A DNA stretch of 64,000 nucleotides from an uncultured Bacilli bacterium (GTDB lineage: Bacteria > Bacillota_I > Bacilli_A > ML615J-28 > CAG-698). Positions 26,023-61,748 of the stretch are shown in pieces. Both the position numbers and the translations under genes were made by a program. Below the pieces are notes generated by a model. The model ran no database searches, was not told the origin of the DNA, and was given only the letters and a program-made list of their open reading frames with translations. Every line of letters begins with the position of its first letter. The stretch's first letter is position 1. The stretch lies in contig CANQVC010000001.1 of the NCBI GenBank assembly GCA_947627195.1, forward strand, positions 99,671 to 163,670, given 5' to 3'.

Positions 26023-26023
26023 C

Positions 26024-30238: not shown

Positions 30239-30250
30239 TTGGAGGTTTAT

Positions 30251-32578: not shown

Positions 32579-32587
32579 AATAGTAAG

Positions 32588-32625
32588 AGGTTATAGTCTT
32601 ATAACCTTTTTTCATTTTATACTTT
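32588..32625 (+). terminator. Rho-independent terminator
   Basis: aggttata-gtct-tataacct followed by tttttcatttt. Confidence 0.6.
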
Positions 32626-32725
32626 AACTAATTTGAAAAACAATTGAAAAAAAACTATTTTTGATGTATAATATTTAAGAATATATTTTAGAAAAGTACA
32701 TTTAATGAAAAGAAAGGGCAATATC

Positions 32726-33400: not shown

Positions 33401-33418
33401 ATTTAAAGGTGAAAAATC

Positions 33419-35473: not shown

Positions 35474-35565
35474 ATATAATAAAATTATAATTTAGCCAAG
35501 GAGAAATAATATTTATCTAATATAATATGTTATTATTGATTAGATATAATATATGTACTAAAATT

Positions 35566-36234
35566 ATGCCAACAAAAGATAAAACAATTATTCGTTATTT
35601 TATAATATTTTTAATTTGTTTAATTTGTATTTATACAAGATATATTTCTAATTTATTTGTTCCTTTATTTATGAAAGTATATTATGGACAATTAGTTGAA
35701 CTATTTAAATTTGCTTTAAGTGCCATTCTTTGGGCAATAGAATTAATTATTTTATGTTATTTTACGAGAAAAAAGTGGAATATTAATTTATTAATGAAGA
35801 AAAACAAAACTACATATTCAATTAAAAGAATAATAATTTTGTATTTAATTGTTTTAATTCCAATTTTAATTATTAGTGCTTCTTTAGGATTTAAATTAAA
35901 AATTGAATATGATTTTGGTGAAAGAATTACTACTCCATATTTAATTAAACAATTATGTAAATATGGCAGTATGGCAATTCAAATGATATTTATTGTAATT
36001 ATGATTGAAGTTATGCAAGTAGCATTTGATAAAATAATCATTACTAAATATAAAATTCCTTGGGGAGGAATAATAGTAATGTTAACATATGGCTTAATTG
36101 AATTAATTATTGATTTTTCTTTGTTTTCAGGTGTTTATTTATTATTTTGTGGTTTATATGGTTTAATTTATATTGTTAGTAATGAAAGAAATTCAATAAC
36201 ATATATATTAAGTTATATATTATATTTATTATAG
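35566..36234 (+). CDS. Small polytopic membrane protein, paralogue of 32726..33400
   Basis: See 32726..33400. The track's ORF starts at 35527; the start at 35566 was chosen by alignment with the paralogue. Confidence 0.5.
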   Translation: MPTKDKTIIRYFIIFLICLICIYTRYISNLFVPLFMKVYYGQLVELFKFALSAILWAIELIILCYFTRKKWNINLLMKKNKTTYSIKRIIILYLIVLIPILIISASLGFKLKIEYDFGERITTPYLIKQLCKYGSMAIQMIFIVIMIEVMQVAFDKIIITKYKIPWGGIIVMLTYGLIELIIDFSLFSGVYLLFCGLYGLIYIVSNERNSITYILSYILYLL

Positions 36235-36278
36235 ATAATATTTCATAAATAATATTGAAAGGAATAAATGTAATCAAT

Positions 36279-38345
36279 ATGGAAAATAAATGGACAAATA
36301 TATTTAATAAACTAAAAATCATTTTAAAAAGATATGCATTATTAATTTCTTTTGTTTTATTAACAATTTTTTATGAATTATTAGGTGTTGCTGTTACATT
36401 TCATAAGTTCTATATCCGTGATCCTAGAATTTTATTTATTTATCTTAGTTTAGCATCGGTTTTAATTTGTTTATTACCAAAACAAAAAATACGTTACATT
36501 TGTTGTTCGATATTATTAGCGATAACAGGAATTGTCAATTTATTATTTATTGTTGTTTATAAAATGACAGGAACTATTTTTGATTTTGGGATGTTAAACT
36601 TAAGAAAAGATGCCATGGGAATTATTGAATCTTTACCAATCCCTTTTCTATTTACATTTTTATTTGGTTTATCTTTTTCCCTTTATTTAGTATTTGGTAA
36701 AAAATATTTAAATTATTTACCTGAAATTAAAATTACTAAATTAAAAACTGCTATTAATTTATTTTTAATTATAATATTAATAATAACTAATGTTATAGTT
36801 GTTATATCATTAAATAATGTAACAACAAAAGCATCAGAAGTAGAACGATTATATGAAAAAGATGAATTAGGATATACTGAACTTGGAATAACTTCAACTG
36901 TAATAAATGAATTTTATAAAGGCTTATTTTTTAATAATGTTGATATGGGAGATGAACAAGAAATAGCTGATTTCTTATATCAAGATGACCATATTTATTA
37001 TGGATCTAAAGAAGCTAATCCTAATAATATTGATCGTTCTAATTATAATGTCATTACAATATTAGCTGAATCTTTAGAATGGTTTTCTTTTATAGAAGAT
37101 TTAGATAAATATCCTAATGGATATAATTTAGAAGATCCTACTGTTTTAGAAAGTCCAAATTTATATAAAAATTTATATGATTTTTATAATCGTAGTATAG
37201 TAATGAATCAATTTTATGCTCGAGAAAAAACTGACATATCGGAAAACTTAAGTATTATTGGTAATTATCCAACTGATGCTTATATAAATTATGATTTCCC
37301 TTATAATACTAATCCTTTTACTCTACCTAATGTATTAAAATCATTAGATGATGATATTTTATGTAAGTCATATCATAATGGTTTAAGAGGATATTATAAT
37401 CGTAATATTTGTCATTTGTCATTAGGATTTGAAGAATTTGTTGATACGGTGACAATGGAAAGTAAATTTAATATGAAAAATTATATTCCAACTGGGGAAA
37501 GAAATTTAGATAGTGAAATGATTTCATCTTGTAAAGAAGAAATGTTTCCTTTGGATAGAAGATTTTATACATATATTACAAGTATTACGATGCATGGACA
37601 ATATACATTTCGCAATAATTTAGATAATAAAGGTTATTATGATTATTTAGATAGTATTGGGGTAAAGGAACAATTTGGTAAAGGAAAAGATGATGAAAAT
37701 AAAAATATTTTTCGTAATTATTGTGCAGCAGCATTAGAATTTGATCGAGCAATTGGCAAGTTATGGGAAATATTAGAAGAAACAGGATTATCTAAAAATA
37801 CTATTGTTGTTATATTTGGTGATCATAATGCTTATTATCAAGGTTTAAGTAATTATGTCAAACAAATATATGATACAAATGACCATCATTATACTGAATT
37901 ATTTCGCATTCCTTTAATGATTTATGTACCTGATATGCCTCATCAAGTAATTGATAAATTTTGTTATACTGCAGATATTGTACCAACATTATTTGATTTA
38001 TTAGGTATAAATTTTTATGAAAATATGTATTTTGGTCATTCCATTTTTAGTGATGAAGAAAGTATTTTATATTCAAGAGCTTATAATGTCTTTATTACTA
38101 ATCATATCTTTTTTCCAAATCTTAATAAAATCTTATATTTAGAAGATGGATATGATAAAGAATATCTAAATGATATTGAAAATAGAGCTGTTAAGATTAT
38201 GACAAAACTTGGATATATTAATCGTATATTTTATAATGATTATTTTGGTATTAAATCTCTTGATAATAATGATAATCCAATTAAGAAAAATGAAATTATA
38301 TTTTATGAACATTTGAAAGCAATAAATAATGGAGAAGATTTATGA
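36279..38345 (+). CDS. LtaS-family sulfatase-superfamily enzyme, paralogue of 33419..35473
   Basis: Same motifs (NVITILAESLEWFSF, REKTDISE, TMHGQ, FGDHN). Collinear with the paralogue from MENKW (the track's start at 36255 is a TTG). Confidence 0.7.
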   Translation: MENKWTNIFNKLKIILKRYALLISFVLLTIFYELLGVAVTFHKFYIRDPRILFIYLSLASVLICLLPKQKIRYICCSILLAITGIVNLLFIVVYKMTGTIFDFGMLNLRKDAMGIIESLPIPFLFTFLFGLSFSLYLVFGKKYLNYLPEIKITKLKTAINLFLIIILIITNVIVVISLNNVTTKASEVERLYEKDELGYTELGITSTVINEFYKGLFFNNVDMGDEQEIADFLYQDDHIYYGSKEANPNNIDRSNYNVITILAESLEWFSFIEDLDKYPNGYNLEDPTVLESPNLYKNLYDFYNRSIVMNQFYAREKTDISENLSIIGNYPTDAYINYDFPYNTNPFTLPNVLKSLDDDILCKSYHNGLRGYYNRNICHLSLGFEEFVDTVTMESKFNMKNYIPTGERNLDSEMISSCKEEMFPLDRRFYTYITSITMHGQYTFRNNLDNKGYYDYLDSIGVKEQFGKGKDDENKNIFRNYCAAALEFDRAIGKLWEILEETGLSKNTIVVIFGDHNAYYQGLSNYVKQIYDTNDHHYTELFRIPLMIYVPDMPHQVIDKFCYTADIVPTLFDLLGINFYENMYFGHSIFSDEESILYSRAYNVFITNHIFFPNLNKILYLEDGYDKEYLNDIENRAVKIMTKLGYINRIFYNDYFGIKSLDNNDNPIKKNEIIFYEHLKAINNGEDL

Positions 38346-38992
38346 ACAATATTATAAATAATAATAATATTATAAATAATAATAATATTATAAATAATAA
38401 TAATATAAATAATATTAGATGTTTAATTGCTAAATATATTCCTAAATCAATTGAAGAAGAAAAAGATAAAGAATTAATTATGTCTTTAATTGATGTTTAT
38501 CAAGATAAACTACTGTATCGTAGTTTATCTTTTGCTCATTTCACTAGTTCATCAATGCTATTTAATTCTAATTTAACAAAATTATTAATGGTAAATCATA
38601 AAATATATCAAAGTTGGTCATGGACTGGTGGACATGTTGATGGTGATAATGATTTTTTCCATGTTGCCATAAAAGAAGCAAAAGAAGAAACAGGTATAAA
38701 AAATCTTACCCCTATTACAAATGATATAATTTCTTTAGAAGTTTTACCAGTTAATGGTCATTATAAGGGAAATGAATATATAAGTAGTCATTTGCATTTA
38801 AATGTCACATATGGTTTTATTGTTTCTGAAAATGAAAAACTAAAAATTAATAAGCAAGAAAATACTGGGGTTAAATGGTTTAATATTAATAATATTAATG
38901 ATATTAATAATATTAATAATATTGTTACAGAAGAAAAAATGATTCCAATATATCAAAAAATTATCAAAAGAGTAATAAATTATAATAAATAA
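38342..38992 (+). CDS. Nudix hydrolase with poly-Asn/Ile low-complexity termini
   Basis: Nudix-box-like GGHVDGDNDFFHVAIKEAKEETGI (G.5[E/D].7[R/K]E..EE.G). ATGA overlap with the LtaS-like stop. The N-terminal (IINNNN)x3 is encoded by an 18-bp tandem repeat. Confidence 0.55.
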   Translation: MNNIINNNNIINNNNIINNNNINNIRCLIAKYIPKSIEEEKDKELIMSLIDVYQDKLLYRSLSFAHFTSSSMLFNSNLTKLLMVNHKIYQSWSWTGGHVDGDNDFFHVAIKEAKEETGIKNLTPITNDIISLEVLPVNGHYKGNEYISSHLHLNVTYGFIVSENEKLKINKQENTGVKWFNINNINDINNINNIVTEEKMIPIYQKIIKRVINYNK

Positions 38993-39081
38993 TTAAGAAA
39001 TTATAGGAAATATTCACTGAATATTATAAAATAGTTTTAATTAATCATAAAAATTGTAAAACGTTTTATCAAAAAAATAGT

Positions 39082-39109
39082 TTGAGTATCTAGCAAAATA
39101 TGATAAAAT
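39082..39109 (+). promoter_or_regulatory. Putative sigma-A promoter for the riboswitch and pur operon
   Basis: -35 TTGAGT (39082-87), a 16-nt spacer, extended -10 TGaTAAAAT (39101-09). The predicted TSS is a few nt before the riboswitch P1. Confidence 0.45.
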
Positions 39110-39118
39110 AAATATGTA

Positions 39119-39186
39119 TCTTGTATAATGGCTTTAATTGGTAAGCGAGTCTCTACCCTACGACCGTAAATTGTAGGACTACAAGA
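39119..39186 (+). ncRNA. Purine riboswitch aptamer, guanine-type (C in J3-1)
   Basis: P1 tcttgt/acaaga. J1-2 ATAAT. P2 ggctt..aagc. J2-3 GAGTCTCTAC (compare xpt AGTTTCTAC). P3 cctac-GACCGTAAATT-gtagg (compare CACCGTAAAT). J3-1 ACT with C at the specificity position. It lies 5' of purE as in other Firmicutes. Confidence 0.75.
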
Positions 39187-39255
39187 AACATAAATTAGGT
39201 TCATTTTACTGTGCCTATTTTTGTGTTTTTCTTGCTTACTTAGAAAGGAAGCAAA

Positions 39256-39426
39256 ATGAACAATTCAAAATTGAACAATTCAAGAATGAATAACCAAAAA
39301 ATGAATAATTCAAAAATAAACACATTTAATTATATCTATTTATGTAGAAAACAAACAACTCATTTTGTGAGCCTTTTTAATAACGCCAAATATTTAAAAT
39401 TAACAAACATTAGAACATTAGACTAA
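39256..39426 (+). CDS. Possible 56-aa Asn/Lys-rich leader ORF between the riboswitch and purE (uncertain whether translated)
   Basis: RBS GAAAGGAAG is 6 nt before the ATG at 39256. MNNSKLNNSRMNNQKMNNSKIN... is encoded by four degenerate copies of an AATGAAYAAYTCAARA unit of about 15 nt. Its stop codon lies inside the 5' arm of the downstream terminator hairpin. Confidence 0.3.
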   Translation: MNNSKLNNSRMNNQKMNNSKINTFNYIYLCRKQTTHFVSLFNNAKYLKLTNIRTLD

Positions 39427-39447
39427 ATAATGCTAATGTTTTTTTAC
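39414..39447 (+). terminator. Terminator/attenuator hairpin immediately upstream of the purE RBS
   Basis: aacattag (39414-21), an 11-nt loop, ctaatgtt (39433-40), then TTTTTTT. The purE SD GGGAGG is at 39455-60. Confidence 0.5.
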
Positions 39448-39466
39448 TTTTTTATGGGAGGAAAAT

Positions 39467-39943
39467 ATGGCAAAAGTAAAAGTAATCATGGGATCAATTA
39501 GTGACTATGAAGTAATGAAAGAAGCAGAACCAATTTTTAAAGAATTAGGTGTTGAATACGAAATGGAAGTAGTCAGTGCTCATCGTACACCTGATAAAAT
39601 GTATGAATTTGCGAAAAGTGCTAGAAAAAATGGTTATAAAGTTATAATTGCTGGTGCAGGTGGAGCTGCTCATTTACCAGGAATGGTGGCATCAATGACT
39701 ACACTACCTGTAATAGGCGTTCCTGTACAAACTAAAGCATTACATGGATTAGATTCTCTTTTATCAATTGTACAAATGCCTGCAGGTATTCCTGTTGCTA
39801 CAGTTGCCATAAATAATGCCAAAAATGCTGCTTTATTAGCTTGTCAAATATTATCTATTGAAGATAAAAATTTAGAAATAAAATTAGAAGAATATCGTAA
39901 TTCATTAAAAGAAAAGGTGTTATCAAGTGTCATCAATCAATAA
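39467..39943 (+). CDS. purE: N5-carboxyaminoimidazole ribonucleotide mutase (class I PurE)
   Basis: [16 protein letters not shown]..., [14 protein letters not shown] (PurE signature). Followed by purK. Confidence 0.9.
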
Positions 39944-41039
39944 AACTTTGGGAATTATTGGTGCTGGTCAATTAGGAATGATGATTGTTGAAGCGGCAAA
40001 AAAAAGAGGAATGAATACAATTGTTTTAGATCCTAATCCTAATTCACCAGCTTTTCGTATTGCTGATAAATATATAAATAAAAGTTTTTCTGATATTAAT
40101 GCTGTAACTGAATTATGTAAAAATTCAGATATTGTAACATATGAATTCGAAAATGTTGATGATGTTATAATTAATGCGGTATGTGAAAAATATAATATAC
40201 CTCAAGGAGCAATGCCTTTATATTATTCTAAGAATCGTTTACGCGAAAAAAAATTAGCCAATTCATGTAAAATTCCTACTGCTAGTTTTCAAAGTGTTCG
40301 CAAAAAAGAAGATTTAATAAATGGAATTAAAAAATTTGGTTATCCTTGTATTTTAAAAACTACAGAAGATGGTTATGATGGCAAAGGACAATTATTTATT
40401 CATAACGAAGAAGATTTACCTAAAGCATATGAATTTATTCAAATAAATTGTATGTTAATGGAATGTATATTAGAAAAAGTTGTTTCATTTGATTTTGAAG
40501 TATCATCTATATCTTTTCGTAGTTTAGATTCATCATTTACTATGTTACCAATTGTTAGAAATATTCATAAAAATGGTATCCTCAATTTAACAATAGCTCC
40601 TGCTATTTTATCTAAACAATTGGAAAATAAAATAATTGAAGCAAGTAGATCTTTTATGGAAATGAATAATTTCTATGGTATTATGACTATTGAATTCTTT
40701 GTTCAAGGAAATGATATATTTTTTAATGAAATGGCACCTAGACCACATAATTCAGGACATTATTCCATTGAAGCTTGTAATTATTCCCAATATGATTTAT
40801 TAATAATGTCATTATTAGGAGAAAAATTACCTCAAGATATTACCTTAAAACCTTGTGTCATGAAAAATATTTTAGGTTATAATCTAGATTTTGTTGATAA
40901 AATTAAAAAAATGAATTTAAAAGATACATATATTCATATGTATGGTAAAAAAGAAGTAATGCCTAATCGAAAAATGGGACACATTACATTTATTGGTTAT
41001 GATTTAGAAAAATATAAAAATACAATTGAAAATATATAA
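39927..41039 (+). CDS. purK: N5-carboxyaminoimidazole ribonucleotide synthase (ATP-grasp)
   Basis: [13 protein letters not shown]-terminus and ATP-grasp body. GTG start 6 nt after AAAAGGTG. 17-nt overlap with purE. Confidence 0.85.
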
Positions 41040-41057
41040 AAATGAAAGAAGGAAAAC

Positions 41058-44000
41058 ATGAATTGCCGAATATTCGTTGAAAAAAAGCCAGGCTTTCGTA
41101 TTGAAAGTGAAGATTTATTAAAAAGTTTATGTGAAAAATTAAAATTAAATTTAACATCACTTCGTATTATTCAAATATATGATATTTTTCATATTGAAAA
41201 AGAATTATTAGAAAAAGCTAAATATACTGTTTTTGGCGAAATTGTTACCGATATTGTTTATGATAAATTAGATTTAAATGGATTACAATATATTGCTGTT
41301 GAAAGCTTGCCTGGTCAATTTGATCAAAGAGCAAGTAGTGCAATGGAATGTTTATCTCTTCTTGAACCTTCTTCAAAAGCTATTGTTCGTTCAGGTAAAC
41401 TAATTATTTTTAATGATAAATTAACTAATGATAATATTAAAGCAATTAAGAAATTTTATATTAATGAAATTGAATCTCGTGAAAAAGACATGACAATATT
41501 GCAAGAAAATGAATTTGTTAATGTGTCTAATGTTCATGAAATGAATAATTTTATAAATTTAAATAAAGAACAATTAGAGAATATTCGTTTATCTATGGGA
41601 CTAGCTATGTCAATAGAAGATTTAATGTTTATTCAAGATTATTTTAAACAAGAAAATAGAAATCCAATTGAAACTGAAATTAGAGTTCTTGATACTTATT
41701 GGTCGGATCATTGTCGCCATACAACATTTGAAACAGAATTAGTCGATATTAATATTGAAGATGGATATTTTAAAAAACAAATCGAAAATACCATTAATGA
41801 ATATTATCAAATGCGTAATGAAATAAATAATAATAAAAAAGTAACATTAATGGATATGGCAACGATTTGTGGGAAATATTTGCGTAAAAAAGGTTTATTA
41901 AATGATTTAGAAATAAGTGATGAAATAAATGCTTGTAGTGTTTATGTTGATGTATTAGTAAATCAAAAGAAAGAAAAATGGTTAATGATGTTTAAGAATG
42001 AAACACATAATCATCCAACAGAAATTGAACCATTTGGTGGAGCATCAACATGTATTGGTGGGGCTATTAGAGATCCATTAAGTGGTAGAAGTTATGTTTA
42101 TCAAGCAATGAGAATTACAGGGGCAGGTGATATTTTTACCCCATATGATAAAACTTTACCAGGTAAATTACCTCAAGCCCAAATATCGAAAACAGCTGCT
42201 AGTGGTTATTCTTCATATGGCAATCAAATTGGTTTAGCTACAACATTTGTTCATGAATTATACCATCCTGGATATGTTGCCAAACGTTTAGAAATTGGTG
42301 CTGTTGTAGGGGCTGTTAAAGCTAGTGATTTAAAAAGAGAAAAACCTAAAAAAGGTGACTTAATTATTTTATTTGGGGGAGCAACAGGACGTGATGGAAT
42401 TGGTGGAGCAACTGGAAGTAGTAAAGAACATACTGAAAGTTCTTTAGAAGTTTGTGCATCAGAAGTACAAAAAGGTAATGCTCCCGAAGAAAGAAAAATT
42501 CAAAGATTATTCCGTCGTCAAGAAGTAACAAAATTAATTAAAAAATCGAATGACTTTGGTGCTGGTGGTGTTAGTGTCGCTATTGGTGAACTTGCTGATG
42601 GACTTAATATTTATTTAGATCGTGTTCCATTAAAATATTCAGGACTAAATGCAACTGAAATTGCGATTAGTGAATCACAAGAAAGAATGAGTGTTGTTAT
42701 AGATCCTCTAGATAAAGATGAATTCTTTAAATATTGTCATGAAGAAAATTTAACAGCAGTAGTGATTGCGGAAGTAACAGATAATAATCGTTTAGTTATG
42801 TATTATCATGATAAAAAAGTTGTCGATATTTCTCGTGATTTTATTAATACAAATGGTGTTAGACAAAAAAATAATGTCTATATTAAATCACCTATAAATA
42901 AAGATTTTCGTAAAGATAGTGAAAATAATCACAATATAAAAGAACAATGGCTTAATAAATTACAAGATTTAAATGTCATGATGCAAAAAGGACTTGGCGA
43001 AATGTTTGATGCTTCAATTGGGGCATCAACCGTCCTAATGCCATATGGTGGTAAATATCAATTAACAGAAGCTCAAGCATCTGTTGAAACATTCCCTGTA
43101 TTAGATGGACATACAACTACAGCTAGTGTTTTATCATATGGATTTGATCCATATATATCAGAAATAAGTCCTTATCATGGTGCTGTTTATGCTATTTTAT
43201 CTTCAGTATGTAAAGTTGTTGCAACAGGTGCTGATTATAAAAATATAAGATTTACTTTCCAAGAATATTTTGAAAGATTAAATAAAGATGAAAATAAATG
43301 GGGTAAACCAACTGCAGCTTTACTTGGTTCAATATATGCGCAAATGAAATTAGGACTACCTTCAGTTGGTGGTAAAGATTCAATGAGTGGCACATTCAAA
43401 GATTTAAATGTCCCACCTACATTAGTATCTTTTGCCATAACTACTGAAGATACATCAAATATAATTAGTCCTGAATTTAAAGGTGTTGGTAATTATATTT
43501 ATTATTTACCACTAAAAGATGATAAAGATTACTTACCTGATTTTGATATTGAAAAGAAGTATTTCACATTTATTCATGAACATATTGTTAATAAAGAAAT
43601 ATTATCTTGTTATGCTTTAGGTTTTGGTGGCATTTGTGAAGCAATATCAAAAATGAGTTTTGGTAATAAAATTGGTTGTGAATTATATATTGATAATAAT
43701 TTATTTGATAAAGGATATGGTAGTTTTATATTTGAATCTAATTGTGAAATTAAAGATGAAATGGCTATTTTAATTGGTAAAACTATTCCAAGTCAAGTTA
43801 AAATTAAAGATGTCATTTTTGATATAAATGATTTACTTAAAGCAAATATGGAGAAATATGATCATATTTATCCTGCATATGGTAAAAATATGTTTAATTT
43901 TACTCCTATGAAAGTTAATCAAGAAAATGATAAAGCTATTTATAATGTTTATCCATATGAAAAAGTAGATGAAGTTTTAGTTTATATTCCAGTATTTCCA

Positions 44001-52865: not shown

Positions 52866-53513
52866 ATGCCTAATAATAAAATGGTTTATTTTTTAATTGA
52901 TTGTAGCGGATCTATGGCTGGTACACGTGCTGATGCAGTAAACTATGCTATGGAAAAAGTAGTAAGTGAAGCAATACCTGCCATTAAAACTCAAAAAAAT
53001 GCTGATTTACGTCTTTACTTTATGGCAATTGGTTTTTCAGGTGATGGTATATTTACAATAATGGATCGTACAAGCTTAGATGATTTCACTAATTGGGATA
53101 CAATTGAAGATAGTGAATTTAATGGTGGAACTCCAACAGGTAAAGCTATCTTAGAAATAATTAAAGATATTCAAGGAGTAAGAGGAGATCCTCTTCCTGA
53201 TGTATGTGCTTCCGCGATTATTTTAATTTCTGATGGTGAACCTAATGGAATAGAACCAACATATGAAGAAGTATTAGAATATGCAAATCGTAATAGTGAT
53301 AAATTCAATTTAGCATTTGCAAAATCACTTCGTGTTGCTATTGGTATTAATGTTGATAATAATGGTCGTGAAAGTCTAAAGAAATTTGGTAGCGTTACAT
53401 CAACAATGAGAGAACAAGGAATTGAATCTTATTATGATTGTAATGAAGAATATGTTGATAAACTTGTTGAAGTACTTAAATCAGCAACAATTCATGCTTC
53501 AATTGGCGCATAA
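52866..53513 (+). CDS. von Willebrand factor A domain protein (TerY-like) with an intact MIDAS motif
   Basis: MVYFLIDCSGSMAG (D.S.S), GGTPTG (Thr), ILISDGEPN (Asp). The RBS AAAAAGGAG is 8 nt upstream. First gene of a four-gene + strand cassette. Confidence 0.75.
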   Translation: MPNNKMVYFLIDCSGSMAGTRADAVNYAMEKVVSEAIPAIKTQKNADLRLYFMAIGFSGDGIFTIMDRTSLDDFTNWDTIEDSEFNGGTPTGKAILEIIKDIQGVRGDPLPDVCASAIILISDGEPNGIEPTYEEVLEYANRNSDKFNLAFAKSLRVAIGINVDNNGRESLKKFGSVTSTMREQGIESYYDCNEEYVDKLVEVLKSATIHASIGA

Positions 53514-53533
53514 AATATAATAAACATAAATAG

Positions 53534-53556
53534 CCACCAGTTTTTCTGGTGGTTAA
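53534..53556 (+). terminator. Intercistronic hairpin (partial terminator or attenuator) between the vWA gene and the phosphatase gene
   Basis: ccaccag-ttttt-ctggtgg: a perfect 7-bp GC-rich stem followed by ttaatgatt (weak U-tract). Confidence 0.4.
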
Positions 53557-53580
53557 TGATTGTTTATAGGAAGGAAATAT

Positions 53581-55584
53581 ATGGACAAAAAAATTATATA
53601 TTTTTTAATAAAACGATTATCAATGGAAAATGTTTCATCATTTCCTTCATCAACTATAGAAAATTATATATATAATACTATAGAACAATATAAAAATGAA
53701 AATGATGATATAACATTTAAAGTTTTATTATATTCTAACCATTCATTATATTCAGTTTTTGATCAATTAATAACTCCATTTAATCAAATTGATGATTATG
53801 ATTTTGGTTATGATAATGTGAATTTAAATGATTTATTCCCATATGTTAGTGATGATTTAGTTAATTTTTCATTTATTAATCGCAAACAAAACATAAAATG
53901 TATTATTATAAATAATAATAATATTATAAACAATAATAATATTTTTAATGTATTAATTGATGATACATGTCCAACATATAACAATATCACAAATAATATT
54001 GCTTTTAAAATAAATAGTCCATCATTAAATAAATCTTTTAAATTATATAATAAAACATTTAATATAGATGATGCAAAAAATGAATTATTAAATTTTTTAA
54101 TAGAATTAAATAATACATCTAATAATATTGATAATAAAAATTCAAATGTTAATATTTTGTCAATGAATTATCAAGAAAAAATGAATTATATTATTCAATT
54201 TTTAAAAGATAATCAAACTAATATGGCAACAGAAGATGATCATTGGCTTGATGTATTAATTGGTGGTAGATCATCTATTCCTTATCAACATATCAATAAT
54301 ATTATTAACAATATTCCTAAATTAAATAATATTGGAAGAAGAAATATCTATTTTGCCACAATTTTATTTTATATATTTACAAATGGTAAATTTGTTGATG
54401 AAGTATGGAAAAATTCATTAACATATTATTTAACACTAAAAGATAAAGCTAAGGAAGTAAATCAATATTTTAATAAAATTAATCAAGAAAATGATGAAGT
54501 ATCTGTCTTTTTCCAAGAACAATATTCATCTATAAAAAGAAAAGATATTGAAAAAGTTATATCCAAAATATATCAACCAGGTGAAAGAAAACTTTTTGAA
54601 ATGTTATGGGAAGTATTAATTACTAATTATCCATATTATGATATTGAACGCCATTGGTATAAATGGTTTATAACGATATTATTTGAAAATGTTCAACCAC
54701 GTTGTTATAAACAATCTTTCACAGAAAAATATGAAAGATATATAATATCAGTAAAAGGTAAAATGCAAAAAATAGGACATGAAACATGTCAAGATTATAC
54801 TGATATGGATGAAATAGATGATAAAATATGGTATGCTGTATGTTGTGATGGAGTTGGAAGTTGTACCCATTCCGCAGAAGGTTCATTACTTGCTTGTCAA
54901 GCTTTCGCCAAAGTCCTAAAATCCAAAATTCAAACCTATTATCATTTTAATTGTCATAAATCATTTGATAAATATACAAATATTGTTGCAAATATTTATC
55001 AATTCTTTACTAATGAATTTGGCAAGAAATTATTTAATCAATGGAAAAAACTTGTTGAAGAAAGTGCTAGTTATCAAAATGATCCTAATAAATCTTTAAA
55101 TAATTATGCTACAACTTTCCAATTTGTTTTCAATTATAAATCATTAATTGTTTGTGGAGCATTAGGTGATGGAAATTATTATATTCATAAAAAAGAAAAA
55201 TTTGGTGATAGATCTTTTGATGGGGGATTTGTTTTAAATGATGGTATATCAGGTGTATCACAAACTTCAGTATTTACTATCTTACATTTAGAAAAAAGTT
55301 CAACTGTTATGCATTTATCATTCTTTAATGCCAAAGAAGTTTCATCAATAATTATTTCCTCTGATGGAGTAATGTTAAATCAAAATTTTTTATCACTAAT
55401 GAATGTTCAAGGTAATGCTAATAATAAATCATTCATTTTTCAAGCAATGAAGCAATTAGAAAATTTATCAAAAGAAGAAAAGATTAATAAATTATCAAAT
55501 CTTGTTTTATCTTGTTCAGATTATAATGAAACTGGATATGGTACAGGTGATGATTGTTCATTAATATTCATTCATTTTAAATAA
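53581..55584 (+). CDS. Protein with an N-terminal region of about 390 aa of unknown function and a C-terminal PP2C-like (SpoIIE/PPM-type) Ser/Thr phosphatase domain
   Basis: PPM motifs YAVCCDGVGSCTHSAEGS (motif 1/2), ALGDGNYY, SSDGVMLNQ and C-terminal GTGDDCSLIFIHF (compare the DD.T..VV motif). The ATG at 53581 follows AGGAAGGAAA. The N-terminal part is poly-Asn/Ile-rich. Confidence 0.55.
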   Translation: MDKKIIYFLIKRLSMENVSSFPSSTIENYIYNTIEQYKNENDDITFKVLLYSNHSLYSVFDQLITPFNQIDDYDFGYDNVNLNDLFPYVSDDLVNFSFINRKQNIKCIIINNNNIINNNNIFNVLIDDTCPTYNNITNNIAFKINSPSLNKSFKLYNKTFNIDDAKNELLNFLIELNNTSNNIDNKNSNVNILSMNYQEKMNYIIQFLKDNQTNMATEDDHWLDVLIGGRSSIPYQHINNIINNIPKLNNIGRRNIYFATILFYIFTNGKFVDEVWKNSLTYYLTLKDKAKEVNQYFNKINQENDEVSVFFQEQYSSIKRKDIEKVISKIYQPGERKLFEMLWEVLITNYPYYDIERHWYKWFITILFENVQPRCYKQSFTEKYERYIISVKGKMQKIGHETCQDYTDMDEIDDKIWYAVCCDGVGSCTHSAEGSLLACQAFAKVLKSKIQTYYHFNCHKSFDKYTNIVANIYQFFTNEFGKKLFNQWKKLVEESASYQNDPNKSLNNYATTFQFVFNYKSLIVCGALGDGNYYIHKKEKFGDRSFDGGFVLNDGISGVSQTSVFTILHLEKSSTVMHLSFFNAKEVSSIIISSDGVMLNQNFLSLMNVQGNANNKSFIFQAMKQLENLSKEEKINKLSNLVLSCSDYNETGYGTGDDCSLIFIHFK

Positions 55585-55609
55585 ATAAAATTATTTAAGG
55601 AGTATGACA

Positions 55610-56857
55610 ATGGAAATAGGTTCAAAAATAACATGTGTTGATCAAGAAGAATTTACAATTATAAAATCAATGAATGAAGCTGGTGGACAAGGAACTTTAT
55701 GGTTAGTAGAAGATCATAATAAAAATCAATATGCTTTTAAGAAACTAAAAAAAGATAAAAAATTTATTCAGAAAAAAGGTAATATTGATAAAATCATTAA
55801 TGAAAATATACATCAGATTGTTGAAAACAAAGGTAAGAAAGATAATATTAAATTCATGTTACCTTTAAAACGTACAAAAATGTTACAAGATGATACTATA
55901 GGTTATATTATGCATCTAGCCAATGGTAAAAGTATAAATTCAATATTAACTATTCCTGATGTTATTACTAACATTCCTTTAGAAACAAAACTTAAAATTT
56001 TAAGACAAGTTGTTTTATCTGTTGATATTTTACATAGTATTGGTTATTGTTATGCTGATATAAGTTGGGGAAATTTCATGTATGATTTTTCTAAAGAAAC
56101 ATTATATGTCGTCGATTGTGACAATATTGCATCTCAATCAGATATTCGCAATAATAAAGCAAATTTTGTTAGTGGTACAGGATTTTTTGTTGCTCCAGAA
56201 GTTGCCTTTGATGGCAAAACTATTGATTTAAATACTGAACATTATTCTTTAGCTGTTTTTATCTTTCGTTTTTTATTAAATAATTTAATTAGTTCACCTT
56301 ATCATGGTTATATTTTACATCGTGAAATGGAAGGTGTAATGCCTCAAAGTACTTTTGATATTGCTGATATGATTAATGAATTTGGTTTGCCAAGTGATTG
56401 GTGTGTTTTTGTTTTTGATGAAAATAATCCAGTAAATTCAATTCGTCGTTTAATTGATGATTATTATCTAAAACAAGCAAATAAAGGGCAAAGTATTAAA
56501 GATAGAATAAAAGAATTAGAACAATGTATTTCTTTATGGAATATAATACCAATTGAAATTAAAAATTTATTGATTGAAACATTTTCTAATTTACGTAATC
56601 CTCGTCGTCCATCAACAATTCAATGGAATATAGCTATTCAACAAGCTTTATCTAAAGATAATATTAATATCAATATTAAACAAAATAATGATACAATATT
56701 ATCTAAAATAAATAATGAAGTTGTTGATATAAAAGATAATATTGAAATAAAGACCAAACCTGTTCGTAAACCTTTTGTTGGACAAGGAGAAATTTTCCCA
56801 ACAAATCCTCAACCTAAAAAGAAATATAAGAAATTTGAGGGCGGAAAAAACGATTAA
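55610..56857 (+). CDS. Protein-kinase-like (eukaryotic-type Ser/Thr kinase fold) protein with a C-terminal extension of about 130 aa
   Basis: Gly-rich loop AGGQGTLWLV. Lys motif YAFKKL. Catalytic-loop-like YADISWGNFMYD (D..N). DFG-like VVDCDNIA. GTGFFVAPEV (APE). The ATG at 55610 is 7 nt after AAGGAG. Confidence 0.55.
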   Translation: MEIGSKITCVDQEEFTIIKSMNEAGGQGTLWLVEDHNKNQYAFKKLKKDKKFIQKKGNIDKIINENIHQIVENKGKKDNIKFMLPLKRTKMLQDDTIGYIMHLANGKSINSILTIPDVITNIPLETKLKILRQVVLSVDILHSIGYCYADISWGNFMYDFSKETLYVVDCDNIASQSDIRNNKANFVSGTGFFVAPEVAFDGKTIDLNTEHYSLAVFIFRFLLNNLISSPYHGYILHREMEGVMPQSTFDIADMINEFGLPSDWCVFVFDENNPVNSIRRLIDDYYLKQANKGQSIKDRIKELEQCISLWNIIPIEIKNLLIETFSNLRNPRRPSTIQWNIAIQQALSKDNININIKQNNDTILSKINNEVVDIKDNIEIKTKPVRKPFVGQGEIFPTNPQPKKKYKKFEGGKND

Positions 56858-56883: not shown

Positions 56884-59800
56884 ATGGAATTAAATGAATT
56901 TAAAGATTATGTTTTTAAAATAACTAAATTATTAAATGAAGTTAATCCTAATCAACCAGTTTCTATTTATGTTTCAGATTATTTAAGAGGCATAAGTACT
57001 AATTATGGAATTGGTAAAGTAATTTATGATTTAGCTGATATATGTGTAAATACTCTTAAAAACATGCCTAATGATGAATGTGATTTTGCTCATTTAAGTG
57101 AAATGGCTTATATAATTCGTAGTAATGATTTTAATTTTGGTAATATTTATAAAACACAAGCATATTTCTTTACTCTTTGTTTATTTGCTGCTAGTCAAAA
57201 TAAGATTAATATTAATGATATTGATTGTGAAGATTTTGATGTTGATGAATTTCAAAAATTTTCTGTTACTGATTTAGATGTTGAAAATGAATTAGATCCA
57301 ATTGAAAAGAAATTAAATTATTACAGGTTACGTTTGTTAGATTTTTCAAGGAGTAATCCTTTAGTTAACTTTAAGAAAAATAGAACTAGTGCTTTGCAAT
57401 TCTTTTCCCCGCAAATTGGCACATTAATGCATGAATTATCTAAAAAGAAGACATTAAAAATTACTAATTGGAGTGATAATCAATTTCAAATAATTTATCG
57501 TTGTAAAATATGTGGTCGATATCATTTTGAATCGTTTAATCCTTTTGATCCATTAAGTAAACCTTCAATAGAATGCCCAGTATGTGATTTAAATAATACT
57601 CATCATCGTAAGAGTATGATTCCATTAGAAGAAGATATGCAATTTGCCATTGATGAATATACATGTAAAAAATGTGGTAAAGTTATAAATATTGATGAAA
57701 TTAAAAATGGTTTATATGAATGTCCTGATTGTCATTCTCCTATTGAATTAAAATCTTTTCCGATTGTATCAACTGATAACATAAATAATATAATTAAGAA
57801 AAATGATAAAAAACCATTTATGATTTGCAGTTTATCTGATAAAAACTTAGCTAAAATAATTGGTACAATTCAAGGTAGAGCCCAAACCATGGAAAAAAAC
57901 TTTGGTTTACATGTGTTATATCTCGCTTGTGGCTTTTTAGAATGGAAAGATATTAATGGTACAAATTATAATTCACCAATATTATTATGTCCTATTCACT
58001 TTAAGAATGAAAACAATTCATTTAGTATTGAAATTGATAGTTCATCAGAACATGTTTTTGAATTTAATAAAACATTATTGCATATGTTGAAAGGATATTC
58101 AAAAGAATATGCAATTTATATTGAACCACCAAAATATAATGAAGAAGATGGAATGTATGGTACATATTTTTCTACTTTGGAATCATATTTAAAAAATGAT
58201 AAAAATGTTATACAATTTACTAAAGATTGGCAAGTTCATAGAACATTAGGAATAAGTTTATTTCATTATCAAAAATTACAATTAGAAAGTGATATGACAA
58301 AATATAAAGATATTTATTTAAATCATCCAATGATTAGAAGAATTTGTGGTGATGAAAATCAAGAAATATTAAGTAGTCAGTCATTTATTCAAAATAGCTT
58401 TCCTTATATTTTATTTGATGCTGATTCGAGTCAAGAAAATGTCATCAATAAAGCTTTAGAAGGTAAATCATATATTTTAGAAGGACCACCTGGTTCAGGA
58501 AAAAGTCAAACAATAAGTAATATAATTGCTATGTCAATTGGTAGTGGTAAATCAGTATTGTTTGTTACCGAAAAAGCAACAGCAAGAACTATTATTTATG
58601 AAAATCTTAAAGAAAAGAAATTAGATTCAACCCATAGTCTTACCGATTATATTCTTGATTTTAATCAATTTCATTTAAGAGGTGGTTCAATTCCTCGTTC
58701 AACATTCATTGAAGAATTAAATAGAGTTGTGAAATTAGATGATATTGCTCAAAGTTCTAATTTCTTTGATGTGGAAAGTAAAGAAATATTAGAACAATAT
58801 ATTAAAAATTATCAAAAAGAATTTAGTACAATGGATGAATCAAGAAATTCATTTATGGGTATTTTAAATAAAATAGTTCAATATGCGAAATATCCAATTC
58901 TTTCATCTTTTAAAAATGTAAATTGTGATTTATATACATTATTTAAAAATATAAAAAAATATTATCAAGATGTTGAAAACAAGATTGTATTATTTGATTA
59001 TCGAAAAGATCCTTTATATTTATGTTTAGGCGATATTGATGGAAAATTTGTTTATAATATTAACCAATATATCAATATATATGATCAAGGTAGTAAATTA
59101 ATTGAAGATATCAATAATCATTTACATTTAAAATTAAATGAAAACAATCGTTTTGAATATCAATATATTATTAATTTATTAAATCAATGTTTCTTACTTA
59201 GTCCTTTAAAAGAGGAAATGTTAAATCAAATAATTATATTAGGAGATTTAGATAAATATAAAACATATTTAGTAAATCGTAAAAATGAAATGAATGAATA
59301 TTTACCATATTATGATTATCAAAAAGAAGTAAATGAATCTTTAATAAATCAAGATATCATTACTGAATTAAATCAAAAAATGGACAAATATTCATCGAAA
59401 ATTAAAAGAATATCAAGAAATTATTATTTATTAAAAAAACAAATTAAATTAATTTTCAAAAATAATATTGTTATAAAAAAATATGAAGATGGTCAAAATT
59501 ATGTTCATAGATTAAATCAATATTTTCATTATTTCCAATTAAAATGTCAATATGAAGAAAAACATCCTGTTGATCATACATATTTAGGATATATTCCCCA
59601 AAATATTACATCTTGGCAAGATGAAATTGATAAAATTGATTTAATTATGAAAATACATCAAGTAATGAATGAATATATTCCTTCATCTATTACATCTACA
59701 ATTGAATTTTTAGAAAATTATCTTTCAAATGTATATCAAAAAAATATGGCAATTTCGAAAAAAATCTTTGAAGAAGCAAATAATATTTTTGATAATGAAG

Positions 59801-61674
59801 CTATTTATTTAAATAAATTACAAAATTATTTTGTATTTGATTTAAATAATAATATGAAAGAAATAGTTGATAAATTAAATATTATTTTAGAAAATCAAAA
59901 TCGATTAGTAATTTGGCAAAATATGCATCAAGAATTAGAATGGTTTAAAGATTATAATGTTTTACCATTATTAAACGAAATTGTTGATAAAAATATTAAT
60001 AATAATATTAATAATAATAATAATTATTATTATTATTGTTATGATATTGTTGAAAAAGCAATTTATCATTCATATTATCAAAAATTATTAGATGAATTTA
60101 TTGTTAAACATTCTTTATCAACAATTAAAAATTTTGATGTTAATGAACATATTGATAATTTAAGGAAATATGCAAAAATAGATGAAAATGATTTGGAACA
60201 TGCTAAATCATATTTATATGATCGATTATATTCCTTAAGGATAGAAGCTAGTAATAAGTTGCAACAAAAGAGTAAATTGTTATCTAATCGAACTGGCTAT
60301 TCCATAAAGAAATTAATTGATGAAAATTGGCAATATATTAAATATATTAAACCATGTTTTATGATGTCACCATTAAATGTTAGTCAATACATTGATATTA
60401 ATAATCAATTTGATTTAGTCATATTTGATGAAGCATCACAAATTTTTACCGAAGATGCTTTAGCTGCCATTGTTAGAGGAAAACAAATAATTATTGTTGG
60501 TGATAGTAAACAATTACCACCATGTGATTTTTTCCGTGCTCAAGATGTTTATCAAAGTGATCAAGAAGATTTATTTGAAGATGATGAAAATCAAGAAAAT
60601 TCCATTTTAAACGATGCTACTAAAGCTTTAGGAGATATTTCTATTCAATTAAATTGGCATTATCGTAGTTATGATGAATCATTAATTGCTTTTTCAAATG
60701 AACACTTTAATTATAATTTAATTACTTTTCCTGCTGCTATTAAAGAAGTCAATGATGGAATTGAATATATATCTGTTCCTTATGATCAAAATCTTTGTTA
60801 TAGTGCTGGAAAAACTGGTACTCATACAAACAAAAAAGAAGCAAGAGTAGTTGTTGAAACATTATGGCGTGAAATTATCCATCCTGAAAGAAATAAATAT
60901 TCATTGGGTGTTGTTGCCTTTAGTAATGCTCAAGCTGAAGCAATAAAAGAAGAATGGTTTGAATTTAGAAAAGATTCTTTAAAAGATGCTGTCATTAAAG
61001 TTTGGGAAGAAAAACATGAAGAAATAATCTTTTGTAACTTAGATACAATGCAAGGTGATGAAAGAGATACAATGCTTATTAGTATTTGTTATAGCCCTGA
61101 TAAAAATGACAAATTTTTATTAACTTATCTAGGTAGAATTCGTTTAGCATCAGGAAAGAAAAGATTAAATGTTGCCATAACTAGAGCAAGACATAGAATG
61201 ATTGTCATATCAATGTTAGAAAATCAAAGATTGAGATCAGCTATTGAAGAAAGTTTAGCATTAGAAGAAAATAAAGAAGGAGCAAAATCTTTATATGATT
61301 TCTTAGAATATGCAAGTTCATTTAAAAATGAAAATAATATTCCTACATCATCTCCATCAAATGATATTGTTAAATCAATATGTGAATGTTTAGATGAAGA
61401 ACATATTTCTTATGATACTGAAATAGGTAGATCAAAATGTAAAATCAATATTGGTATTAAATCATTACCATTTAATGGTAATTATTCATTAGGAATTATT
61501 GTTGATGATCCTACAAGGACTGATTTTGACAGTCCACGTGAATATGCTAGATTAACTGAAAAAATATTAAGAAATAAATATAATTGGGATATTTATCGTA
61601 TTTATCCAATATCTTGGGTAAATAATTATGAGCAAGAAAAAGCTAAATTATTAAAAAAAATTCATTCAATTTAA
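56884..61674 (+). CDS. Giant Upf1/DNA2-like SF1 helicase (1596 aa): N-terminal DUF4011-like domain with two inserted zinc ribbons, helicase core, and C-terminal restriction-endonuclease-like (DUF3320/MTES-type) domain
   Basis: Walker A ILEGPPGSGKSQT (about aa 533). Walker B VIFDEASQI (about aa 1181). Motif III IIIVGDSKQLPP. Motif VI LNVAITRARHRMIVIS. DUF4011-like GLHVLYLACGFLEWKD. Zn ribbons CKICG..(20)..CPVCD and CKKCG..(17)..CPDCH. The RBS AAAAGGAGGAAA is 8 nt upstream. A terminator follows. Confidence 0.7.
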   Translation: MELNEFKDYVFKITKLLNEVNPNQPVSIYVSDYLRGISTNYGIGKVIYDLADICVNTLKNMPNDECDFAHLSEMAYIIRSNDFNFGNIYKTQAYFFTLCLFAASQNKININDIDCEDFDVDEFQKFSVTDLDVENELDPIEKKLNYYRLRLLDFSRSNPLVNFKKNRTSALQFFSPQIGTLMHELSKKKTLKITNWSDNQFQIIYRCKICGRYHFESFNPFDPLSKPSIECPVCDLNNTHHRKSMIPLEEDMQFAIDEYTCKKCGKVINIDEIKNGLYECPDCHSPIELKSFPIVSTDNINNIIKKNDKKPFMICSLSDKNLAKIIGTIQGRAQTMEKNFGLHVLYLACGFLEWKDINGTNYNSPILLCPIHFKNENNSFSIEIDSSSEHVFEFNKTLLHMLKGYSKEYAIYIEPPKYNEEDGMYGTYFSTLESYLKNDKNVIQFTKDWQVHRTLGISLFHYQKLQLESDMTKYKDIYLNHPMIRRICGDENQEILSSQSFIQNSFPYILFDADSSQENVINKALEGKSYILEGPPGSGKSQTISNIIAMSIGSGKSVLFVTEKATARTIIYENLKEKKLDSTHSLTDYILDFNQFHLRGGSIPRSTFIEELNRVVKLDDIAQSSNFFDVESKEILEQYIKNYQKEFSTMDESRNSFMGILNKIVQYAKYPILSSFKNVNCDLYTLFKNIKKYYQDVENKIVLFDYRKDPLYLCLGDIDGKFVYNINQYINIYDQGSKLIEDINNHLHLKLNENNRFEYQYIINLLNQCFLLSPLKEEMLNQIIILGDLDKYKTYLVNRKNEMNEYLPYYDYQKEVNESLINQDIITELNQKMDKYSSKIKRISRNYYLLKKQIKLIFKNNIVIKKYEDGQNYVHRLNQYFHYFQLKCQYEEKHPVDHTYLGYIPQNITSWQDEIDKIDLIMKIHQVMNEYIPSSITSTIEFLENYLSNVYQKNMAISKKIFEEANNIFDNEAIYLNKLQNYFVFDLNNNMKEIVDKLNIILENQNRLVIWQNMHQELEWFKDYNVLPLLNEIVDKNINNNINNNNNYYYYCYDIVEKAIYHSYYQKLLDEFIVKHSLSTIKNFDVNEHIDNLRKYAKIDENDLEHAKSYLYDRLYSLRIEASNKLQQKSKLLSNRTGYSIKKLIDENWQYIKYIKPCFMMSPLNVSQYIDINNQFDLVIFDEASQIFTEDALAAIVRGKQIIIVGDSKQLPPCDFFRAQDVYQSDQEDLFEDDENQENSILNDATKALGDISIQLNWHYRSYDESLIAFSNEHFNYNLITFPAAIKEVNDGIEYISVPYDQNLCYSAGKTGTHTNKKEARVVVETLWREIIHPERNKYSLGVVAFSNAQAEAIKEEWFEFRKDSLKDAVIKVWEEKHEEIIFCNLDTMQGDERDTMLISICYSPDKNDKFLLTYLGRIRLASGKKRLNVAITRARHRMIVISMLENQRLRSAIEESLALEENKEGAKSLYDFLEYASSFKNENNIPTSSPSNDIVKSICECLDEEHISYDTEIGRSKCKINIGIKSLPFNGNYSLGIIVDDPTRTDFDSPREYARLTEKILRNKYNWDIYRIYPISWVNNYEQEKAKLLKKIHSI

Positions 61675-61718
61675 AATTATATAATAAAAAAAGTAAGATA
61701 ATAAATCATTTATAAAAT

Positions 61719-61748
61719 GCAAATGATTTCATCTTGCTTTTTTTTTGA
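61719..61748 (+). terminator. Rho-independent terminator after the helicase gene
   Basis: gcaaatga..tcatcttgc stem (one bulge) followed by T9. Confidence 0.5.

Follow-up and report, generated by a model that had tools for sequence, protein, structure and literature searches.

A zinc-ribbon branch of the Hhe/ProA DUF4011 helicases with degenerate nuclease residues, often encoded beside a TerY-P-like triad

Hhe-type helicases, which carry a DUF4011 domain, are widespread anti-phage proteins encoded by single genes. In the literature searches made, neither a mechanistic or structural study of these proteins nor a paper describing the related ProA was found. Here, a helicase of 1596 amino acids (aa) is compared with them. 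It is encoded, together with a von Willebrand factor A (vWA) protein, a PP2C phosphatase and a Ser/Thr kinase, on a stretch of 64,000 nucleotides from an uncultured Bacilli bacterium (assembly GCA_947627195.1, contig CANQVC010000001.1, positions 99,671 to 163,670, forward strand), referred to below as the window. What is new about this protein is that it belongs to a zinc-ribbon branch of the known Hhe/ProA helicases, with degenerate nuclease residues and often coupled to a TerY-P-like triad.

The described relatives provide two lines of comparison. Anantharaman et al. 2013 (PMC3710099) introduced MTES_1575, the domain following the helicase in these proteins, as a 'novel Vsr-REase', and its founding protein is a transglutaminase-HEPN-helicase-Vsr fusion (PMC3710099). 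In MTES_1575 proteins, Hhe and ProA the nuclease is followed by DUF3320, a pair of winged helix-turn-helix domains (PMC3710099), and E. coli Hhe is reported to lose its anti-phage activity when its Vsr domain carries the exchange E1731A (preprint 10.1101/2022.06.16.496414). The second line concerns the partner genes, whose composition is that of the TerY-P triad (vWA, PP2C and Ser/Thr kinase). Two papers (PMC11090510, PMC4978471) report that TerY-P triads occur with modules for DNA processing or restriction and alongside the Upf1-like helicase CnuH, and describe the kinase of CnuH-associated TerY-P in type II and III-A CoCoNuTs as carrying a zinc ribbon. A passage in PMC11090510, citing Gao et al. 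2020, also describes TerY-P with an oligonucleotide/oligosaccharide-binding (OB)-fold kinase as a three-gene system that defends alone against phage.

The domain content and conservation patterns of the helicase, the loss of canonical acidic residues from its Vsr-like domain, the structure of the operon and the recurrence of the linkage are established by the analysis. The overall reading is fairly probable: the helicase would be a member of an unnamed sister clade of Hhe, ProA and PDC-S37 that acts in an accessory defense-type cassette in which the triad serves as a switch.

The helicase and its zinc ribbons

The preliminary description of this DNA, made from the letters alone, had described a helicase with twin zinc ribbons in its N-terminal part and a nuclease-like C-terminus. 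The gene is real in that its reading frame is uninterrupted. From the N- to the C-terminus the protein consists of a helical domain, DUF4011 with a twin zinc-ribbon insert, an Upf1-like superfamily 1B (SF1B) core that holds a large helical insert, and a Vsr-like domain, MTES_1575, that is degenerate. The features are listed below in window coordinates; AF2 denotes AlphaFold2 models and pLDDT their predicted local distance difference test score.

56884..61674, + strand: helicase open reading frame (ORF), 1596 aa, uninterrupted
56884..57303, + strand: N-terminal helical domain, aa 1-140, clade-specific (AF2 pLDDT ~90)
57331..58089, + strand: DUF4011 domain, aa 150-402, including LYLACGFLEW at aa 344-354 (Pfam)
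57496..57591, + strand: zinc ribbon 1, CxxC pairs C207, C210, C231 and C234, flanking beta strands at high pLDDT
57658..57738, + strand: zinc ribbon 2, CxxC pairs C261, C264, C280 and C283
58483..58506, + strand: Walker A (motif I) GPPGSGKS, invariant columns G534-S541
58681..60333, + strand: family-wide all-helical region (AF2, about aa 600-1150) lying between motifs Ia and II
60001..60036, + strand: Asn/Tyr low-complexity run NNNINNNNNYYYY, 12 aa, about aa 1040-1051, gene-specific insertion
60427..60441, + strand: Walker B (motif II) DEASQ; D1182, E1183, S1185 and Q1186 invariant, A1184 nearly so
61336..61671, + strand: Vsr-like MTES_1575 domain, aa 1485-1596, with N1522, I1539, D1541 and A1555 (Pfam, hhalign, AF2)

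The helicase was aligned in MAFFT with its 63 best database homologues. Fifty-one of these (P0001-P0050 and P0055) align over their full length at 30-65% identity and make up the clade discussed here. All four CxxC pairs of the proposed ribbons are present, and their eight Cys residues are invariant in 51/51 clade homologues, far beyond what chance would give. The entire Cys segment is missing from the next relatives, P0051-P0063, so that family members lacking the insert do exist, outside the clade; the region matching aa 140-410 measures 262-276 residues in the clade versus 107-187 in P0051-P0063. The Pfam profile of DUF4011 (PF13195) matches with 89.8 bits (cut-off 22.2), placing the protein in that family, and because all of its positions (1-158 of 158) are matched over aa 150-402, the sequence comparison confirms the predicted ribbons as an insert of about 85-95 aa inside DUF4011, upstream of LYLACGFLEW. 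Within that motif, G350, F351, L352 and W354 are invariant in the clade.

A model of the N-terminal 520 residues (AF2; 48 sequences, pLDDT 86.8, predicted template modeling score 0.81) consists of three parts: a helical domain (aa 1 to ~150), a mixed alpha/beta DUF4011 with long beta hairpins, and the two ribbons. The ribbons are modeled as short beta hairpins at pLDDT ~88-95, except for the loop at aa 221-230. Ribbon 2 gave weak matches to Zn_ribbon_8 and FmdB CxxC_CxxC_SSSS, with local Foldseek hits to zinc ribbons. The N-terminal helical domain had no match in Pfam, and none by Foldseek in the PDB or BFVD at E <= 1e-3; no solved structure for DUF4011 was matched in the sequence and fold searches made.

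The N-terminal module is rare and limited to one architecture, since a HMMER search with aa 1-339 yielded 31 hits at E <= 0.001, about 27 of them module-carrying representatives of 50%-identity clusters among 1.84 billion, and since the complete proteins carrying it are all 1578-1629 aa long. At least two CxxC pairs ahead of Walker A were found in no outgroup helicase among the 162 family proteins screened, and in none of 12 proteins from IMG/VR contigs. The ribbon insert is basic (median isoelectric point 8.7, net charge +5) in a protein whose overall isoelectric point is 5.8, and nucleic-acid binding by the ribbons is plausible for this reason. It had also been suggested that the ribbons dock the upstream kinase or vWA protein. 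Such a docking role is unlikely: clade helicases that stand alone, as judged from 2-8 kb of flank per side, retain all eight Cys, and triad-linked helicases outside the clade have no ribbons.

The helicase core is of the Upf1-like SF1B type and appears catalytically competent. In motifs I, II, III, V and VI (GPPGSGKS, DEASQ, GD.KQLPP, QGDERD and R..NVA.TRAR) the clade shows little or no variation, and Pfam AAA_11 and AAA_12 score 53.5 and 56.4 bits against a cut-off of 27 for both. The best PDB matches by sequence are IGHMBP2, Sen1, Dna2 and Upf1. A model of aa 501-1596 (AF2; alignment of 57 sequences, mean pLDDT 89.4) has its best Foldseek matches in Aquarius, SETX, Dna2, IGHMBP2, Upf1, Sen1 and nsp13, with the top 50 at E = 6e-11 to 4e-7. 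The protein thus combines the five intact motifs with a fold of the Upf1/IGHMBP2/Sen1/Dna2 type.

The region between motifs I and II had been singled out as an unusual, Lys/Asn/Ile-rich and partly low-complexity insertion of about 650 aa. Its length is borne out by the 646 aa that separate Walker A (aa 534) from Walker B (motif start aa 1180); its unusual character is not, as the long spacing is a trait of the family:

All clade members: Walker A-B spacing 629-673 aa
True ProA proteins: 622-639 aa
Wider DUF4011/MTES_1575 helicase family: 456-1452 aa

The composition is likewise as described, and it matches that of the whole protein and the gene's G+C content of 21-26%. Only 12 residues are of low complexity; the remainder is confidently modeled as continuous long helices (pLDDT ~85-95). 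The 12 residues form the Asn/Tyr run, which is modeled as a low-confidence loop (pLDDT <50) and which none of the homologues shown in the alignment has, not even P0001 at 65% identity. Asn/Tyr runs of this kind are typical of low-complexity expansion in an AT-rich genome. The helical insert is the least conserved part of the protein, with 19% identity within the clade. Part of it is common to other defense helicases, because the PADLOC profile of Mokosh MkoC aligns to aa 851-1446.

The strongest profile match of the helicase was to PADLOC PDC-S37 (E = 1.7e-192, aa 139-1594, profile positions 5-1339 of 1550; PADLOC carries no curated cut-off for it), from which it differs in lacking a C-terminal tail of about 210 profile positions. 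No paper on this candidate, and hence no experimental validation, was found in the literature searched. The PADLOC model of Hhe matched the C-terminal part only (E = 1e-90). Both NCBIfam equivalog models scored under their cut-offs: ProA (NF058533) gave 624 bits versus 1500 over aa 300-1595 (profile positions 434-1705 of 1903), and Hhe (NF042953) gave 423 bits versus 2000, with its best stretch at aa 790-1595. On the ProA model the true ProA proteins P0053 and P0060 reach 1968 and 2096 bits, and clade member P0005 reaches 662. Because the clade's scores lie so far under those of true ProA, the clade is best placed as a separate, small, unnamed sister branch of the Hhe/ProA/PDC-S37 DUF4011 helicases. 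Its members are annotated in the sources merely as 'DUF4011 domain-containing protein'.

Hhe (Gao et al. 2020) and the helicase share DUF4011, an Upf1-like SF1 core with a very long spacing between motifs I and II, and MTES_1575 after the helicase. Hhe (1911 aa) differs in that it has no CxxC at all, keeps the Glu of its IECDG motif and extends past its nuclease part; the genes for it in E. coli and Klebsiella stand alone, unaccompanied by a triad. ProA is the best NCBIfam hit, has a nearly equal Walker A-B spacing and likewise lacks the strand-3 Glu of the nuclease domain. It differs in about 430 N-terminal profile positions, in the absence of zinc ribbons, in a retained strand-2 Asp and in its DUF3320 tail, and it is a solo gene in the one locus examined (P0060). 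The likeness to Mokosh MkoA and MkoC extends over the SF1 core and part of the helical insert. The MkoC match is weak and partial (E = 3e-22), its alignment ending at profile position 945 of 1136; no Mokosh-specific domain was matched beyond the helicase region, and Pfam found no nuclease domain other than MTES_1575.

The C-terminal Vsr-like domain

A nuclease-like C-terminus had been proposed, and both homology searches and modeling support its relationship to MTES_1575. Pfam MTES_1575 (PF18741) matches aa 1497-1593 with E = 1.7e-9 and 38.0 bits, just under the gathering score of 38.2, and precomputed PF18741 hits are found in all but four of the clade homologues, two of these being truncated (P0042, P0055) and two divergent (P0049, P0050). 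A profile of the clade domain aligned to the canonical MTES_1575 profile with 99.6% probability (hhalign, E = 1.3e-24). The predicted structure has the alpha-beta-beta-beta-alpha-beta order expected of a restriction-endonuclease core, at pLDDT ~90 or above, and supports the assignment of a nuclease-like fold. The canonical profile finds the DUF559 'endonuclease-like protein' structure 3HRL as well as RAP domains; the clade profile found no PDB chain by sequence (best E = 0.31), and the link of the clade domain to 3HRL is therefore indirect, through the canonical profile.

Two details of the preliminary description did not hold. The stretch 'LGIIVDD..(17)..EKILR', read as a PD-(D/E)xK motif, lies off the family's D, ExD and D positions, and its E-K falls in a helix aligned to 'RLRQDVLE' and is not invariant. 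A DUF3320 domain is also absent: Pfam PF11784 was not matched in the helicase, which ends 3 aa past the MTES_1575 match, and it is listed for none of the clade homologues. Beyond the end of the helicase, the profiles of PDC-S37 and ProA run on for about 200 positions.

The active-site positions of the family were tallied by aligning 161 domains, 51 from the clade and 110 from the outgroup (outgroup proteins and genome loci), to one hidden Markov model:

Position 1522, strand 2: outgroup Asp 108/110; clade Asn 24, Ser 15, Asp 9, Gln 2 of 51; helicase Asn
Position 1539, strand 3 (E of 'IECDG'): outgroup Glu 68, Leu 31 (ProA type) of 110; clade Ile 44, Leu 4, Val 3 of 51; helicase Ile
Position 1541, strand 3: outgroup Asp 110/110; clade Asp 51/51; helicase Asp
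Position 1555, following helix: outgroup Asp/Glu 97/110; clade Ala 25, Ser 13, Thr 13 of 51; helicase Ala

The family's acidic set (strand-2 Asp, strand-3 Glu-x-Asp and helix Asp/Glu) is thus incomplete in the helicase, in which three of the four positions are non-acidic and only D1541 is kept. No clade member keeps the full canonical set.

The residue whose exchange disables Hhe can be located within this alignment. The annotated Hhe is 99.7-100% identical between Klebsiella plasmids and E. coli, and the Glu of its IECDG motif is residue 1727. In the Klebsiella/E. coli hhe locus (L089, 5826-5840) an in-frame ATG lies four codons before the annotated start, right after a stop codon. Counted from this ATG, the IECDG Glu would be residue 1731 and match E1731A, a mapping made by numbering; the RefSeq start of hhe may be four codons too short. 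The equivalent of E1731 in the helicase is I1539, a position held by Ile, Leu or Val in 51/51 clade members.

The MTES_1575 domain is nevertheless 50% identical within the clade, versus 19% for the helical insert, and is therefore under selection to serve some function. The domain is most likely a non-catalytic or much weakened nuclease-fold module that is used for binding.

The four-gene cassette and its recurrence

In the window the helicase is the last of four co-directional genes, in the order vWA-PP2C-kinase-helicase, located between purB and pyrB and separated by gaps of 46, 19 and 26 nt. A promoter-like site is found in the cassette's own AT-rich upstream region. The remaining features of the cassette are as follows.

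52866..53513, + strand: vWA protein, 215 aa, TerY-like, with the metal-ion-dependent adhesion site (MIDAS) DxSxS (D12, S14, S16); Pfam VWA 28.2 bits, cut-off 23.8
53531..53555, + strand: hairpin with a 10-bp stem (5 G-C pairs) in the 46-nt vWA-PP2C gap, a terminator-like site
53560..55584, + strand: PP2C protein, 674 aa, C-terminal phosphatase at aa 406-635; Pfam PP2C_2 61.6 bits, cut-off 24
55604..56857, + strand: Ser/Thr protein kinase, 417 aa; Pfam Pkinase 49.1 bits, cut-off 31.7
61686..61746, + strand: intrinsic terminator after the helicase, a long AT-rich hairpin with a U run (-18 kcal/mol, z = -4.77)

Three consecutive genes thus carry the domains of the triad, each above its Pfam cut-off. 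The MIDAS residues of the vWA protein are conserved in orthologues from L001, L081, L082 and L085, the loci being described below. The hairpin that follows this gene may act as a partial terminator or attenuator; it could attenuate read-through and leave the vWA protein in excess over the products of the downstream genes. Orthologues of the PP2C protein hold the same position in L001, L081 and L082. Its N-terminal aa 1 to ~400 (window 53560-54770) have no Pfam match, and this uncharacterized domain contains blocks conserved in the same three loci ('NN.F.A.LLFYI..G.YP...WK' and 'KI(F/Y)EMLWEVF'). The kinase has the conserved Lys, D..N loop and DCD(N) motif; no zinc ribbon, OB fold, Cys pairs or extra domain was found at its C-terminus. 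Elsewhere in the clade, the kinases of L001 (6399-7976) and L082 (6448-7974) continue at the C-terminus into a further conserved domain of about 90 aa, which is missing from the window kinase, and the Cys pairs of the L084 kinase are similar to the zinc ribbon that canonical TerY-P kinases carry.

Nine further clade loci were compared with the window:

L001 (Clostridia metagenome-assembled genome from goat rumen): vWA-PP2C-kinase-helicase, order as in the window
L081: order as in the window, the vWA gene being present as three paralogues in tandem; TIR and ADP-ribosylglycohydrolase genes adjacent
L082: order as in the window
L086 (65% homologue): contig truncated; the helicase is preceded by the kinase and followed by a pyrB-like gene, in synteny with the window
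L084: helicase facing a rearranged kinase-vWA-PP2C-transglutaminase set
L085: vWA only
L083: solo helicase next to recA-recX
L087: solo helicase next to an arginine operon
L088: solo helicase next to a tRNA-modification gene

At least one triad gene is present at 7/10 clade loci, the window included, versus 2/79 outgroup loci (Fisher p = 6e-7). The component found at most clade loci is the vWA gene (six loci), ahead of the kinase (five) and PP2C (four). The two outgroup cases, L026 (2993-13238) and L080 (4698-13100), are kinase-vWA-PP2C-helicase operons whose helicases (2303 and 1852 aa) have no zinc ribbons. Triads paired with DUF4011 helicases are thus not confined to the zinc-ribbon clade, and outside it the gene order is different. 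The contigs were scanned with generic helicase motifs, with one genome per species and the best 80 of 589 matching loci taken; a single full-length clade member, L001, was among these 80. A phage- or plasmid-borne cassette was considered and rejected, as no clade member was found on the plasmids, phages or IMG/VR contigs searched.

At L081 (2346-4699 and 16162-19271), the three vWA paralogues ahead of PP2C-kinase-helicase and the TIR and ADP-ribosylglycohydrolase genes downstream make up a defense-island setting. At L084, a transglutaminase-core protein (7862-8866) lies beside the rearranged triad, an association that may be meaningful given the founding MTES_1575 fusion.

The cassette resembles TerY-P and CnuH loci in having the three domain types in one operon beside an Upf1-like helicase, and in a triad that is facultative, as in CoCoNuTs. 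It differs in that the zinc ribbons are located in the helicase and not in the kinase. Membership in type II or III-A CoCoNuTs was ruled out, since no McrBC or HEPN (CnuB, CnuC, CnuE) genes are present and the four-gene cassette is bounded by purB and pyrB. Because PADLOC returned no TerY-P hits, the kinase is without a zinc ribbon or OB fold and McrBC and HEPN genes are absent, 'TerY-P-like' is the appropriate term for the triad.

The island has a G+C content of 0.21-0.26, versus about 0.29 in its flanks. The other genes of the window are ordinary chromosomal ones, such as those for an Opp transporter and for surface proteins and a pur operon under a purine riboswitch; together they suggest a Firmicute-like bacterial chromosome of low G+C. 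The riboswitch (Rfam RF00167, 76.6 bits; window 39101-39201) precedes the pur operon, which ends in purB just upstream of the cassette. Three very large ORFs lie at 414-3413, 3621-8153 and 8403-16031. Two of their products, of 999 and 1510 aa, have no Pfam match at all; the third, of 2542 aa, has S8 subtilase, PA, Fn3 and Big_2 domains and numerous leucine-rich repeats of the BspA type, a combination suggestive of a surface protease or adhesin. A second region of lowered G+C (0.23-0.27, below its surroundings) at 26001-42000 encodes a Listeria-Bacteroides repeat protein, a GH9 glycosidase, two sulfatase-family (LtaS-like) proteins and a NUDIX protein.

The defense reading and its alternatives

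From homology and context, we infer that the cassette is an accessory defense-type module. Its accessory character is suggested by the low G+C content of the island, by the small size of the clade (~27 clusters in 1.84 billion) and by the position of L081 beside TIR and ADP-ribosylglycohydrolase genes. In such a module, the SF1B motor would probably translocate 5'-3' on single-stranded nucleic acid of an invader, or of a replication or transcription intermediate that has stalled. Substrate recognition or sensing, rather than classical nuclease action, would be the part of the conserved Vsr-like domain and of DUF4011 and its basic ribbons. The vWA, PP2C and kinase proteins would form a reversible phosphorylation switch that either licenses the helicase or turns its engagement into a downstream response.

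Several findings weigh against this interpretation. The profile scores are far below the equivalog cut-offs of ProA and Hhe, so that a defense function is inferred by homology and context. The vWA and PP2C proteins were unmatched in PADLOC, and the kinase hits were to mad6, PD-T4-6 and MkoA and not to TerY-P. Three of the ten clade helicases (L083, L087 and L088) stand alone among housekeeping genes, and for this reason the triad is either dispensable or encoded elsewhere in those genomes. The domain need not be catalytically dead for having lost the canonical acidic residues; conserved acidic residues particular to the clade are found in it, D1542 in 39/51 members, E1553 in 48/51, and D1504 and D1511 in all. 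True ProA members also lack the strand-3 Glu, yet are named anti-phage by NCBIfam.

These last points are the basis of an alternative in which the C-terminal domain has kept its nuclease activity by means of a rewired site (D1541/D1542, E1553 and D1504/D1511), and in which invading DNA is degraded in a helicase-driven manner, as by Hhe. Asp at 1541 is invariant in 161/161 domains, and Asp at 1542 could be a compensation, as the outgroup has Gly there in 104/110 domains; the strong conservation of the domain and the ProA precedent fit this idea as well. However, D1542 is not invariant, Asn, Glu and Ile being found too, the canonical set is complete in no clade member, and the acidic positions lost include the Glu needed for defense by Hhe. 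An active nuclease of this kind is regarded here as doubtful.

The cassette could also consist of two independent systems, a stand-alone TerY-P-like triad and a stand-alone helicase of the Hhe/ProA type, that share a small defense islet with no coupling. Defense genes commonly cluster. The three-gene TerY-P defense described in the passage of PMC11090510 that cites Gao et al. 2020 would fit a triad acting by itself, and ProA (P0060) and the three solo clade helicases occur alone. Against this stand the order and short gaps kept at 38-65% helicase identity in L001, L081, L082 and L086, the single promoter-like region and terminator that bracket all four genes in the window, the enrichment of the linkage in the clade over the outgroup, and L085, where vWA stays beside the helicase without kinase and PP2C. 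Mere co-residence is accordingly considered unlikely.

A housekeeping helicase of DNA or RNA metabolism (in repair or R-loop removal, for example) with the triad as a stress-signaling regulator would suit the neighbors of the solo copies, the degenerate nuclease site and the presence of Dna2, SETX and IGHMBP2 among Upf1-like helicases, but it is very improbable in view of the sparse and patchy spread of the clade, the low-G+C island, the anti-phage role of all of the closest named relatives and the TIR-containing island at L081.

The reading of an accessory defense-type cassette with a triad switch can be carried one step further, to a distinct, unnamed four-gene defense system. In such a system nuclease chemistry would have been given up, the Vsr-like domain would serve as a DNA binder or sensor, the ribbons would be a new nucleic-acid reader, and the output would be produced by the kinase and phosphatase acting on vWA or on the helicase. 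This extension is tentative and, on present evidence, not the likely case; if true, it would represent immunity by signaling rather than cutting within the Hhe superfamily.

For work on the family, the clade provides natural variants in which the family's modules are separated: an intact helicase, lost nuclease residues in a conserved domain, added ribbons and a facultative triad. For annotation, this means that the label 'nuclease' on MTES_1575 domains is not transferable without a check of the catalytic residues. Comparison with Hhe could show the roles of the Vsr-like domain and of DUF4011, and could also show how phosphorylation switches of the TerY-P type connect to helicase effectors, a link also seen in CoCoNuTs.

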